Assembly: GCA_040905425.1 (NCBI GenBank)
Contig: JBBDRO010000081.1
Coordinates: 19,598 to 31,921 of the forward strand
Source of the DNA: Gemmatimonadota bacterium
GTDB lineage: Bacteria > Gemmatimonadota > Gemmatimonadetes > Longimicrobiales > RSA9
Length of the DNA: 12,324 nucleotides
Direction of reading: 5' to 3'
Position 1 is the first letter of the stretch; every line of letters begins with the position of its first letter. This document shows, piece after piece, positions 7,657 through 12,324 of the stretch. The position numbers and the translations under genes are program-made. The notes below the pieces were generated by a model. That model was given only the letters and a program-made list of their open reading frames with translations, was not told the DNA's origin and made no database searches.

Positions 7657-8841
7657 TCATCCAGCACCGCCCCGCACCACCCGCCAGCGCACGATGGTGG
7701 GCACCCCCAGCTCATCCGTGCGGGTGCCCCACACGTGGTCCCCGTCGAGGGTGAGCAGCTCCGCATCCCCGGGCACGTCCACCACCGCGCTGCGGCCCGC
7801 CGGCTCCACCACGTCCCAGCGGCCGGTCTCCCGCTCCACCCAGACCACATCCCCCGCGGCCGCGCGCACGGTGCGGGCGAACGCGCCTGCCGGCCGGGTG
7901 GTGGTGGGCGGCTCGTAGGCGGGCGGGTCGAAGGCCTGGCGCACGGCCCGCTCCCAGGCGCCGCGACTGGTCACGCCCCGCTCGATCAATCCTGCACCCG
8001 GGCTGCGCTCACCATCTACCTGCCGCGCCACCCACGCGTCCACCTCCGATGAGGGTACCGGCACTGGATCATACCGGACGCTCGCGCGCCACAGCTCCGC
8101 CCCGTGCGGATTGAGCACCCGGACGTGGTAGGCGGCGCTGTCGGGATGCGTGGGTACGGGCCGCTCCAGCACCGCCAGTTGGGAGCCGTCCGGGGCCAGG
8201 GCCACCAGGTCGCCCGTCGGCCAGGGATTGCGCAGGTAGCTCTCCACGCCCGGCACCACCACGCGCACATTGCGGTCTCCCCAGCGCGTGTCCGCGAGCT
8301 GCGTATGCCTGAGCCCCTCCAGACGCTCGAAGGAGAAGACCGTGTGGGACGTATCCAGGACGGCCACCAGCGGCGCGCCATCGGCCAGCACACCGGCCAG
8401 CTCCCATTCCCCGTGCGGGAAGCGCGCGCGGGCCGCCTCCAGGTGCTCGGCCGTACCCACCACACGTCCGTCCACGAAGCGCGTGGTACGGTAGTGCCGC
8501 CCGTCCGCCACCCAGAGGGTGTCCCCCAGCAGGCCGATGGCCACCACGCGCCGGAACTCCCCCGGACCGTCTCCCTCCCCGCCCACACGGCCAAGGTAGC
8601 TGCCGGCCGTATCGAAGCGGAGCACGGCCGCCGTGCGGCCGTCCACCACGAGGAGCTGGCCGTGGCCGGTGGGCAGGATGAAATGGACGGCGGTCAGCGG
8701 TGCCTCGTCGCTTGGAGAAAAGACGCGCGCCTCGGCGAGCGTCCAGCGCTCGGCCTCAGTGGCTGTGTGCGCGGGCGGCCCCTCGGCGCACGCGGCCAGG
8801 GCCAGGCACGTCCAGGCGGCAAGCATCGGCTTCGGCTTCAT
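7657..8841 (-). CDS. Lipoprotein with NHL/6-bladed beta-propeller-like repeats, 394 aa
   Basis: GGAGG SD. Lipobox LAAC at residue 18. Propeller-type motifs VLRFDTAGSYLGRVGGEGDGPGEF and GDTLWVADG, with C-terminal DELGVPTIVRWRV. Confidence 0.82.
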   Translation of the reverse strand: MKPKPMLAAWTCLALAACAEGPPAHTATEAERWTLAEARVFSPSDEAPLTAVHFILPTGHGQLLVVDGRTAAVLRFDTAGSYLGRVGGEGDGPGEFRRVVAIGLLGDTLWVADGRHYRTTRFVDGRVVGTAEHLEAARARFPHGEWELAGVLADGAPLVAVLDTSHTVFSFERLEGLRHTQLADTRWGDRNVRVVVPGVESYLRNPWPTGDLVALAPDGSQLAVLERPVPTHPDSAAYHVRVLNPHGAELWRASVRYDPVPVPSSEVDAWVARQVDGERSPGAGLIERGVTSRGAWERAVRQAFDPPAYEPPTTTRPAGAFARTVRAAAGDVVWVERETGRWDVVEPAGRSAVVDVPGDAELLTLDGDHVWGTRTDELGVPTIVRWRVVRGGAG

Positions 8842-8886
8842 TGGCTACCTCCGTGCGGGCGCGGCGCGGGAACCGGCACGTGGACC

Positions 8887-8915
8887 TTGACCTCCAGCCC
8901 CGCCGCCGCTACTTT
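8887..8915 (+). promoter_or_regulatory. Sigma-70 promoter of the cold-shock gene
   Basis: TTGACC (8887-8892), 17-bp spacer, TACTTT (8910-8915). Predicted +1 near 8921-8922, exactly where the structured leader begins. Confidence 0.75.
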
Positions 8916-8921
8916 CAATCT

Positions 8922-9111
8922 TGCACGAGTGAGGCTTCAGGCCCAACCGGGCCCTGGAGCGAAGAAACAAGGACCAGGGCGCTCGCGCTCAGGTCCTTTT
9001 TTTTCATTCGCTGCACGCCCGCGGCGGGGGGCGAAAACGCCCGCACAGTGATGATCGATGGGTACGGACATACCGCACCTCGAGTCATCCACACCCAGAG
9101 GAGTTGGTATG
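8922..9111 (+). promoter_or_regulatory. Structured 5' leader of the csp gene (attenuator plus SD/AUG-masking switch)
   Basis: Hairpin 8934-8960, terminator hairpin 8969-8998 with T8, alternative pairing 8951-8957 with 8974-8980, closing helix 8922-8932 with 9004-9015, and CATACC/CCTC complementary to the AUG and SD regions. Confidence 0.65.
8969..9004 (+). terminator. Intrinsic terminator inside the csp leader
   Basis: AAGGACC-A-GGGCG-CTCG-CGCTC-A-GGTCCTT, with a run of 8 T at 8997-9004. Confidence 0.75.
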
Positions 9112-9318
9112 CGTACCACGGGAACCGTGAAGTGGTTCAATGACAGCAAGGGCTTCGGCTTCATCACGCCGGAGGACGGTTCGAAGGACTGCTTCGTCCA
9201 TCACTCGGCCATCCAGGGCAGCGGCTTCAAGTCGCTCGCCGAAGGTGATCGCGTCGAATTCGACATGATCGAGGAGGCCAAGGGCCCCAAGGCCCAGAAC
9301 GTCTCCCGCGTGGAGTAG
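9109..9318 (+). CDS. cspA: Cold-shock protein (CspA family), 69 aa
   Basis: GAGGAG SD and ATG 9109. [11 protein letters not shown]1 KGFGFI, RNP2 [21 protein letters not shown] and KGPKAQNV. The exact csp paralog cannot be assigned. Confidence 0.97.
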
Positions 9319-9324
9319 TTCAGC

Positions 9325-9390
9325 CGGGCGGCCTTGAGCCGCCCGAGCACAGAGGAGCCCACTCCGCCACGTGCGGGGTGGGCTCCTTTG
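9325..9390. terminator. Tandem hairpins / terminator between the convergent csp and 91-aa genes
   Basis: CGGGCGGC-cttga-GCCGCCCG (9325-9345), then AGGAGCCCACTCCGC-cacgt-GCGGGGTGGGCTCCT (9353-9387) followed by a short T tract. Confidence 0.7.
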
Positions 9391-9414
9391 CGTGGGGGCA
9401 CTGCCGCGCCGGAC

Positions 9415-9690
9415 TCAGCCGCGGAAATCGCTCGGCGCCACGAGCACGTTGGATGCGGCCGCGAAGAACGGCTGCTTGGGCCGGTCCGTGAACGCCAGCT
9501 CGAGGAGGCGGCTGCCGTCGCCCGTCCTGCCCAGGATGCGCACCACCTCCGCCAGCCCCTCGGAGCACTGCACGTGCCCGCCCACATCCGGCAGACGCTC
9601 CGCGCCGCTCACCCAGCCGGGCCGTTCGGCCGCGAGCACGCGCAGAGTCTCGGGCGCGATGCGTTTGCTGGTATTGCCGTAATCGGACAT
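9415..9690 (-). CDS. Small hypothetical protein, 91 aa (possible small beta-barrel)
   Basis: Fills the gap between the csp terminator and the next gene, with GC3-biased codons and protein-like composition (VGGHVQCSEGLAEVVRILGRTGDGSRLLELAF...FFAAASNVLV). Has its own promoter candidate upstream. Confidence 0.7.
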   Translation of the reverse strand: MSDYGNTSKRIAPETLRVLAAERPGWVSGAERLPDVGGHVQCSEGLAEVVRILGRTGDGSRLLELAFTDRPKQPFFAAASNVLVAPSDFRG

Positions 9691-10374: not shown

Positions 10375-10381
10375 CGAGAGA

Positions 10382-12324
<1,943 letters not shown>

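Follow-up and report, generated by a model that had tools for sequence, protein, structure and literature searches.

A terminator-like hairpin within a predicted 5′-end-closing junction in the conserved leader of a csp gene in Gemmatimonadota

Why does a csp (cold-shock protein) gene in a bacterium of the phylum Gemmatimonadota carry, ahead of its start codon, a hairpin followed by a run of T that looks like a transcription terminator? The question arises from a stretch of 12,324 nt on contig JBBDRO010000081.1, hereafter the window, a high-GC contig from a metagenome-assembled genome (MAG) of 4.1 Mb; all coordinates below are those of the whole window and all parts of the csp leader lie on its + strand. 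An initial annotation, made from the sequence alone, had proposed here an attenuator composed of a promoter, two hairpins, a T8 run and a pair of complementary strands, the csp AUG lying about 105 nt past the terminator. All these elements are found at the places given to them, and the start codon is confirmed as the ATG at 9109. Our analysis supports the view that the region 8922-9015 is a real, conserved, promoter-proximal csp leader with a terminator-like hairpin; it would constitute the first module of a structured mRNA leader of about 187 nt. This module 1 consists of a hairpin P1, a linker, a terminator-like hairpin P2, the U run behind it, and a closing helix P0, in which the opening nucleotides of the predicted RNA pair with a strand located behind the U run (Table 1).

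In the window, the minimum-free-energy fold of the RNA from 8922 to 9004 contains both hairpins and has a stability of -39.3 kcal/mol (z = -3.44), which was equalled by none of 200 shuffles. P2 is a GC-rich stem-loop of -17.7 kcal/mol directly followed by T8, i.e. it has the sequence features of an intrinsic terminator; a simple terminator scan caught only the inner 5-pair part of the hairpin at 8969-8998. When the folded RNA is extended to 9016, the closing helix is gained and forms part of the minimum-free-energy structure: the energy goes from -38.7 kcal/mol for 8922-9003 to -50.3 kcal/mol for 8922-9016, a difference of 11.6 kcal/mol (at 37°C). The proposal that the 5′ end is closed by a helix in the read-through RNA only is borne out by this fold, and also by the family-wide support described below.

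The promoter at 8887-8915 was not listed by a simple promoter scan because its -10 hexamer, TACTTT, fits the consensus at only 3 of 6 positions. With a relaxed pattern (a TTGAC-like hexamer, a gap of 15-18 nt and a -10-like hexamer), 50 of 56 related leaders show a promoter-like match in the corresponding position, with predicted starts 35-53 nt upstream of P2, at the 5′ strand of P0. Inspection of the leaders by eye revealed no further promoter that is conserved in the interval from the U run to csp. Since the only conserved promoter is upstream of P0, transcription of csp must pass P2 and the U run. Nor can the hairpin and the T run be the terminator of the upstream gene (7657-8841), because that gene is on the opposite strand.

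Is this arrangement peculiar to the window? A blastn search against 40 relatives gave matches in six of them, and five of these matches are leaders of csp orthologs (75-81% identity) with the same order of parts: a TTGAC-type promoter, the 5′ strand, a small variable hairpin, the linker, and a GGACCTGG...CCGGGTCC-type hairpin with a T run behind it. The shared order continues downstream with a strongly conserved box, then a Shine-Dalgarno sequence and the ATG. The sixth match (L006) covers 26 nt of the promoter region only, and there is no csp at that locus. The downstream box was also used alone, as an exact 22-nt pattern with 19 specified bases; it was found at 30 loci in one-genome-per-species contigs and at 27 in metagenome contigs. 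Among the former, 28 are titled as Gemmatimonadota MAGs of various ranks, the others as Rhodothermales and ‘uncultured bacterium’. With 9 duplicates removed, the collection amounts to 59 distinct leaders, every one located before a csp start and all from MAGs or metagenome contigs. As these leaders were selected by the downstream box only, they constitute an unbiased sample for module 1, and 56 of the 59 possess the P2 hairpin and the U run. An automatic finder had given 54 (in L069, where a real hairpin is present, it was misplaced) and two, L060 and L065, were added by eye. In these 56 leaders, which belong to high-GC genomes, the U run behind the GC-rich hairpin is 5-8 long, and the hairpin energies range from about -14 to -25 kcal/mol across leaders. 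The position of the linker is occupied in most relatives by a near-invariant (A/G)CCAG, which is missing from the window. The full layout is also present in L031, on a contig titled as a Rhodothermales MAG and thus outside Gemmatimonadota; this placement could result from mis-binning or from transfer.

The best support for P0, P1 and P2 comes from the way in which their strands vary together. Pairs were counted in 47 leaders, namely the matches at E ≤5e-7, all on the csp strand, of a covariance model (R2, see below). In this set, 89.3% of the cells are paired, as against 75.2% after shuffling, and none of 500 shuffles was as high on any measure. Nineteen of the 24 pairs are changed on both sides (148 such cells versus 51 in the shuffled sets), and sliding the partners by 1-3 columns brings the proportion of paired cells down to 53.3% at most. 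P0 has 94.7% of its cells paired and all 4 of its pairs changed on both sides; the corresponding values are 82.9% and 6/6 for P1, 73.6% and 4/4 for the pairing of the linker with the segment behind the U run, and 96.6% and 5/10 for P2. The outer pairs of P2 are nearly invariant, and it is the inner stem pairs that change on both sides; an internal pair of the hairpin is U-G in 30 leaders, U-A in 8, C-G in 2 and something else in 7 (n = 47). Pair counts in a smaller set of 17 sequences agree with these. Where the initial annotation had called for covariation of its helices, three of them, i.e. the closing helix and the two hairpins it had numbered 1:2 (P1) and 3:4 (P2), do covary; the fourth, the 2:3 pairing, is not conserved.

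Covariance models were used because MAFFT alignments of module 1 proved inadequate: P0 and P1 were misaligned and RNAalifold recovered only P2. A first model, R1, was built from 10 leaders of a short form with a hand-written structure, and R2 from the 17 best matches of R1; short and long forms of the leader were distinguished by eye. R1 imposes the P0 register of the short form on long-form leaders and also matches the reverse strand, and clean alignments were therefore chosen by E-value cut-offs. Thus, R1 scores 32.6 bits on the minus strand of the window and 29.0 bits on its plus strand, and the covariance models give 32.6 and 30.2 bits for 8958-9042 on the minus strand, an artefact to be reckoned with in family searches; it arises because P2 is nearly palindromic and because a GC hairpin located downstream mimics P1. 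At E ≤1e-3, R2 recovers 54 of the 60 loci searched, those missed being L002, L032, L060, L061, L073 and L082. A secondary match of the models (29.5-29.8 bits) lies at L022:53-137, downstream of the csp gene of that locus, and is found on the opposite strand as well; it was rejected as a second leader and is probably the bidirectional 3′ terminator of the csp gene.

An alignment-free approach was also used for P0: the 5′ part of one leader was joined to the 32 nt following P2 in another, and the resulting chimeras were folded. This approach replaced both of our RNAduplex tests of this helix. For 56 leaders, the gain in energy is -9.23 kcal/mol for cognate combinations and -6.75 kcal/mol for non-cognate ones, and at least 5 pairs between nucleotides 1-18 and the post-P2 segment are formed in 40 of the 56 cognates versus 54% of the non-cognates; neither mean was reached in 20 000 permutations. 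A version restricted to 32 sequences gave 27/32, with 0 and 1 of 20 000 permutations reaching the two means. The wide-window RNAduplex test, although noisy, went in the same direction (-18.5 for cognates, -16.5 for non-cognates; 3 of 10 000 permutations reached the cognate value). By eye, the P0 strands can be seen to diverge and yet to stay complementary: P0 has 11 bp in L005, 10 bp in L031 and 8 bp in L011, in sequences that are unrelated.

Table 1. Features of the csp leader and gene in the window, listed in order of position
Feature	Position	Strand	Remarks
Promoter	8887-8915	+	TTGACC 8887-8892, spacer of 17 nt, TACTTT 8910-8915; RNA start predicted at ~8922
P0, 5′ strand	8922-8932	+	TGCA-CGAGTGA; opening nucleotides of the predicted RNA; partner 9004-9015
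P1 hairpin	8934-8960	+	sequence variable among leaders; present in the minimum-free-energy fold
Linker	8961-8968	+	purine-rich, GAAGAAAC; pairs with the U run in folds of the window
P2 terminator-like hairpin	8969-8998	+	A-A mismatch 8976/8991; hairpin energy -17.7 kcal/mol
T8 run	8997-9004	+	directly behind P2
P0, 3′ strand	9004-9015	+	TCATTCG-C-TGCA; transcribed after the U run
P3 hairpin	9024-9044	+	type GCGGGGGGCG-AAAA-CGCCCGC; in long-form leaders only, absent from the short form
Local hairpin with conserved box	9048-9092 (box 9061-9083)	+	-16.6 kcal/mol at 37°C
Translation start region	9098-9117	+	GGAG 9100-9103, ATG 9109-9111, codons 2-3; predicted partner of the box
csp gene	9109-9318	+	69 amino acids; ATG 9109; Pfam CSD match 5.6e-31

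Is the region transcribed as one RNA into csp? Parts of the stretch are contained in 22 public runs, of which 6 are RNA libraries, in all cases as contigs, and four of the RNA runs were compared over 8780-9420. One of them, an ice metatranscriptome (X8), includes a 225-nt contig with a depth of 278, which aligns to 8953-9155 and crosses P2 and the U run into csp. It differs from the window by one T fewer in the run and by 5 other letters; at 9011, the bulged C of P0, it reads A, which leaves the helix intact. A further 23 upstream letters are unlike the window, consistent with P1 being variable, and the end of the contig would lie about 8 nt past the predicted start. We take this contig as a weak hint of read-through transcripts beginning near 8922. 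The three other runs (X18-X20) have no cover upstream of 9050, and no RNA contig of the four runs extends over the promoter or the divergent gene; these being contigs only, absence upstream of 8934 is uninformative.

The reading that we favour, with a probability of roughly 55%, is that of a leaky or factor-controlled intrinsic terminator forming part of a junction by which the RNA's 5′ end is covered. A sigma-70-type promoter would start the RNA at the first strand of P0, and a fraction of the polymerases would stop at P2 and the U run, thus releasing an RNA of about 80 nt. In read-through transcripts, the 3′ strand of P0 would pair with the 5′ end and lock P1 and P2 into a three-way junction, inside which the linker would pair with the U run. 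Because P0 is completed only past the termination point, it cannot decide termination, and since it cannot influence this step, its conservation must serve the full-length mRNA. There, P0 would most likely act either by covering the 5′ end, with a possible effect on stability, or by providing a compact platform for the binding of a protein. As no RNA antiterminator is conserved, the choice between stop and go would most likely depend on temperature or on a factor that acts at P2 and the U run. A Csp protein would be the most plausible factor, because Csp proteins melt RNA and cause terminator read-through in E. coli. Control could take the form of positive feedback, of a cascade via antitermination among the five csp paralogs of the genome, or it could be negative.

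Several points weigh against this reading. The first is the patchy distribution of the family. The exact 18-nt box is found in 7 of the 401 genomes of a sample of the phylum, an exact string being too strict a measure of the occurrence of the leader, and R1 matches 8 of the 121 genomes of the class, including the genome of the window, whose own match in this search is on the reverse strand. By family, the matches amount to 3 out of 4 genomes for the family of the window, to 1/27, 1/3, 1/24 and 1/31 for four others, and to 0/10, 0/18, 0/2 and 0/1 for the remaining ones. As judged by these matches, conservation of the leader is limited to some of the Gemmatimonadota. A second point is that three leaders, L061, L073 and L082, have the box module but lack the terminator hairpin and its U run, so that the two modules need not go together. 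In L073, which has no U run, the 5′ end still forms 9 bp with a strand further downstream. Third, the alignments of the 17- and 47-sequence sets were fitted to a model and hence lean towards the structure, and the sequences are relatives, so that the shuffle counts are not equivalent to probabilities. The P0 duplex, when compared to shuffles, is weak (mean z of -0.63, 11 of 56 leaders below -1.64). On the side of expression, the RNA contigs cannot reveal ends, strand or level, and a single contig from one study (X8) is involved. Fourth, as far as can be judged from the leader sequences, no RNA competitor of the terminator is conserved, and termination may be unregulated altogether. Finally, a plain terminator needs neither the conserved outer stem of P2 nor the CCAG of the linker, and our favoured reading cannot explain them. 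Together with the internal U-G pair, these conserved segments point to a specific partner and could be a protein site.

A more elaborate version of the same reading, which we consider rather less likely, is that a Csp protein or cold would decide on passage through the U run, and that passage would form the 5′-covering helix, thereby linking attenuation with the stability of the mRNA; the terminated RNA, of about 80 nt, may then double as a small RNA.

Could the RNA of about 80 nt be the actual product? It would then be an independent trans-acting RNA composed of a 5′ tail, P1, a single-stranded ACCAG and a U-tailed terminator, and read-through into csp would be incidental. Such an RNA would possess a promoter of its own as well as a strong terminator-like hairpin followed by a U run, and the sequence conservation of the linker motif and of the P2 stem is what is often seen in the seed and the scaffold of small RNAs. 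However, the location of such an RNA is expected not to be tied to one downstream gene, whereas module 1 is tied to csp: it always lies directly upstream of it and in the same orientation, in the 59 box-selected leaders as well as at all 8 match sites that R1 has in 7 other genomes of the class. Likewise, no second csp promoter was seen to be conserved by eye, the X8 contig crosses the terminator, and P0, which covaries, requires a strand located behind the U run, i.e. a read-through RNA. We therefore regard a purely trans-acting RNA as unlikely; the roles in trans and in cis do not exclude each other.

Another possibility, which we also consider improbable, is that termination at P2 is negligible and that the module is a structural element of the mRNA 5′ end, the junction stabilising the message or offering a site for a protein or for RNase processing. 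Several observations fit: P0 pairs the first nucleotides of the RNA and becomes effective only after read-through; P2 is extended by pairing of the linker with the U run and the nucleotides that come next; L073, with its P0 of 9 bp, has no U run; and both the sequence of the P2 stem and its internal U-G pair are conserved, as would be expected of a recognition site. But in these high-GC genomes, 56 of 59 leaders retain 5-8 U directly behind the GC-rich hairpin, beyond what pairing with a purine linker would need, and the energies of the P2 hairpins are typical of working terminators.

The initial annotation had favoured an RNA-switch attenuator, which our data make quite unlikely. Here GCCCTGG at 8951-8957, the exact reverse complement of CCAGGGC at 8974-8980, would pair with the latter (2:3) and exclude both 1:2 and 3:4, temperature or a Csp protein shifting the balance. 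In the window, this pairing is exact over 7 bp, and the duplex of the 32 nt upstream with the 5′ strand of P2 has an energy of -16.6 kcal/mol and a z of -3.5 (200 mononucleotide shuffles); in the near-twin L068, the same duplex has a z of -3.2. Only these two leaders stand out. For the next relatives of the window's type, z is -0.8 (L016), -0.7 (L002) and +1.1 (L060), and over the 56 leaders the complementarity of the upstream 32 nt to the 5′ strand of P2 is at chance level (mean z of -0.26, 6 of 56 below -1.64). The initial annotation had made its attenuator depend on conservation of the 2:3 pairing. Of its proposal, the leader, the terminator-like element and the closing helix stand, whereas the 2:3 antiterminator, going by sequence comparison, characterises the lineage of the window and not the family. 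Moreover, the 2:3 helix of the window would also need to break P1.

Two other antiterminators were considered. One, pairing of the 5′ strand of P0 with P2, was rejected (5′ 16 nt against the P2 hairpin: mean z of -0.06, none of 56 leaders below -1.64, and 442 of 10 000 permutations reaching the cognate mean). The other involves the linker, whose tetrad is CCAG in 34 of 47 leaders and CCGG in 6, and which in most relatives could pair with a CUGG of the 5′ strand of P2. The combinations of linker and P2 tetrads are CCAG/CUGG in 32 of the 47 leaders, the G-U-compatible CCGG/CUGG in 6, CAGG/CUGG in 3, an uncompensated CCAG/CCGG in 2 (L037 and L058), and others in 4. The lineage of the window is among the last: the arrangement is inverted there, CUGG standing upstream and P2 carrying CCAG, in what resembles a compensated swap. 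Such a helix would have only 4 bp and a long loop, whereas removal of P2 costs 8.0-18.1 kcal/mol, with a mean of 12.5, in 32 leaders tested. When the 3′ strand of P2 is withheld, at least 5 of the 9 nucleotides of the 5′ strand pair upstream in 27 of these 32 leaders. The CCAG of the linker also pairs, in read-through folds, with the segment behind the U run. Four pairs, one swap and two uncompensated changes are not enough evidence to claim a CCAG/CUGG pairing.

The idea that the inverted repeat GGACCTGG...CCGGGTCC is a DNA operator, bound by a dimeric transcription factor downstream of the start, is very improbable, for although the outer 8 bp of P2 are conserved beyond what a stem requires and the repeat is a near-palindrome that RNA models match on the reverse strand too, its half-sites consistently differ (a T on one side and a G-pairing C on the other, giving U-G in RNA), the inner stem pairs change on both sides, the U run is on one strand only, and the whole is nested in the covarying P0 and P1.

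What lies between module 1 and the start of csp? In the alignment, no part of the leader is as conserved as the box. In minimum-free-energy folds, it pairs with at least 10 of the 26 nt spanning positions -14 to +12 of the gene in all 58 leaders (58/58), with a mean of 17.1. A change on both sides is seen in L053, where AUGCCG in the box stands opposite CGGCAU at the start, the other leaders having AUACCG and CGGUAU. In the window, pairing of the box with the start region is predicted to be more stable at 37°C (-22.3 kcal/mol) than the local hairpin (-16.6 kcal/mol), a ranking that also applies at 10 and 25°C. Thus, the folding models predict that the box is an anti-ribosome-binding-site (anti-RBS) sequence, which would either mask the Shine-Dalgarno sequence, the AUG and codons 2-3, or fold locally. 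With this second module, the leader would have the layout of known csp thermoswitches.

Is the element known? With Rfam 15 at gathering thresholds, the sole match in the whole window is a TPP riboswitch at 10378-10480, so no existing family reaches its gathering score over 8922-9015, the region for which the initial annotation had called for a cmscan search. The best matches over this region are ar35 (19.2 bits, E of 0.25) and htlv_FSE (17.1 bits, E of 1.7), and on the minus strand Thr_leader (13.9 bits, E of 8), all far below the respective gathering scores. A permissive cmscan also gives RF01766, the cspA thermoregulator, at 9049-9390 with 44.9 bits (E of 2.9e-10), below the gathering score of 78; this alignment covers the box module and the coding region, and not 8922-9015. 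In the literature searched, outside of which subscription journals fell, we found no published description of this csp leader; in PMC11109978, the terms ‘csp’ and ‘cold shock’ are both absent from the text. The leader would thus be an unusual and previously undescribed form of csp leader regulation that includes premature termination, its unusual point being that the terminator is built into a junction in which the RNA's 5′ end is paired.

If this holds true, an intrinsic terminator serving as an arm of a three-way junction would be an undescribed kind of csp riboregulator. The control of csp genes outside a few model bacteria is largely unknown, premature termination in csp leaders of E. coli was demonstrated as late as 2024 and is Rho-dependent there, and the leader would offer a compact, sequence-defined alternative to Rho-dependent csp control in a phylum that is common in soil and sediment. 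A new entry for an RNA family could be started from our alignments A5 and A7 and the models R1 and R2.

Some neighbouring features are worth recording. The genome of the window has 5 csp paralogs, and R1 matches only at the present one. The leader of another (L049, contig C37) has a TTGACA-N17-TAGCTT promoter about 280 nt upstream of its csp, a ACCAGCAAGG linker, and a GC hairpin of another kind with T7 behind it; it is detected by neither R1 nor R2, and is another terminator-bearing csp leader. In the window, immediately 3′ of the csp stop, a GC-rich hairpin with TTT can be seen by eye at 9354-9389. It is probably csp's own terminator; the small-RNA matches that Rfam gives in overlap with it are weak and below threshold. 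Further downstream, the TPP riboswitch (RF00059; 64.3 bits, above the gathering score) precedes a ThiC gene, listed as an open reading frame at 10429-12324 (Pfam ThiC_Rad_SAM, 7.2e-187). Since the listed start, 10429, falls within the riboswitch, the true start of ThiC must be further downstream.

How does the leader compare with csp systems described previously? Csp-mediated read-through of intrinsic terminators in E. coli was reportedly described by Bae et al. in 2000. Csp proteins are also reported to make an intrinsic terminator of E. coli less efficient (Morita et al. 2022, PMC9765468). The likeness is in the effector step proposed here, i.e. a Csp protein lowering termination at a hairpin terminator; the difference is that the targets in E. 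coli are other genes or terminators of small RNAs. A csp gene with a Csp-responsive intrinsic terminator in its own leader was not found in the literature searched, again with subscription journals outside its scope.

The closest parallel for the csp genes themselves is provided by enterobacteria. According to the available part of a review (PMC12360218), the leaders of cspA, cspB and cspG in E. coli undergo Rho-dependent premature termination, which is relieved by cold and restored by CspA; for such Rho-dependent switches in csp leaders of E. coli and Salmonella, the review refers to Delaleau et al. 2024. In this account, read-through is set by refolding in the cold and by binding of Csp to its own leader. 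What is alike is premature termination inside the leader of a csp gene. In contrast, the stop signal of the Gemmatimonadota leader, about 80 nt past the start, is an intrinsic hairpin followed by a U run instead of a Rho loading site, its terminator would be an arm of a three-way junction closed at the 5′ end, and there is no sequence relation between the two.

As for translation, the thermoswitches of cspB and of cspC in S. aureus have an anti-RBS that is either in a hairpin of its own (open form) or paired with the RBS (locked form), and CspA has been proposed to bind a UUUGUUU motif and thereby favour the locked form (Catalan-Moreno et al. 2021, PMC8034633, in the portion available). The box module, at 9048-9117, has the same predicted anti-RBS layout. 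In our collection, the U run is often extended as UUUUUGUU(G/U), e.g. in L004, L017, L019, L024, L036 and L053, the window having UUUUUUUUCAUUCG; the resemblance of this extension to the S. aureus motif may serve as a lead only. The likeness to cspB and cspC concerns the second module and not 8922-9015, and the S. aureus elements are described as translational switches, for which the portion of PMC8034633 at hand mentions no terminator. Lastly, the E. coli cspA thermoregulator (RF01766) resembles our leader in being a long structured 5′ untranslated region of a csp gene, and differs from it in that module 1 has no counterpart in that model.

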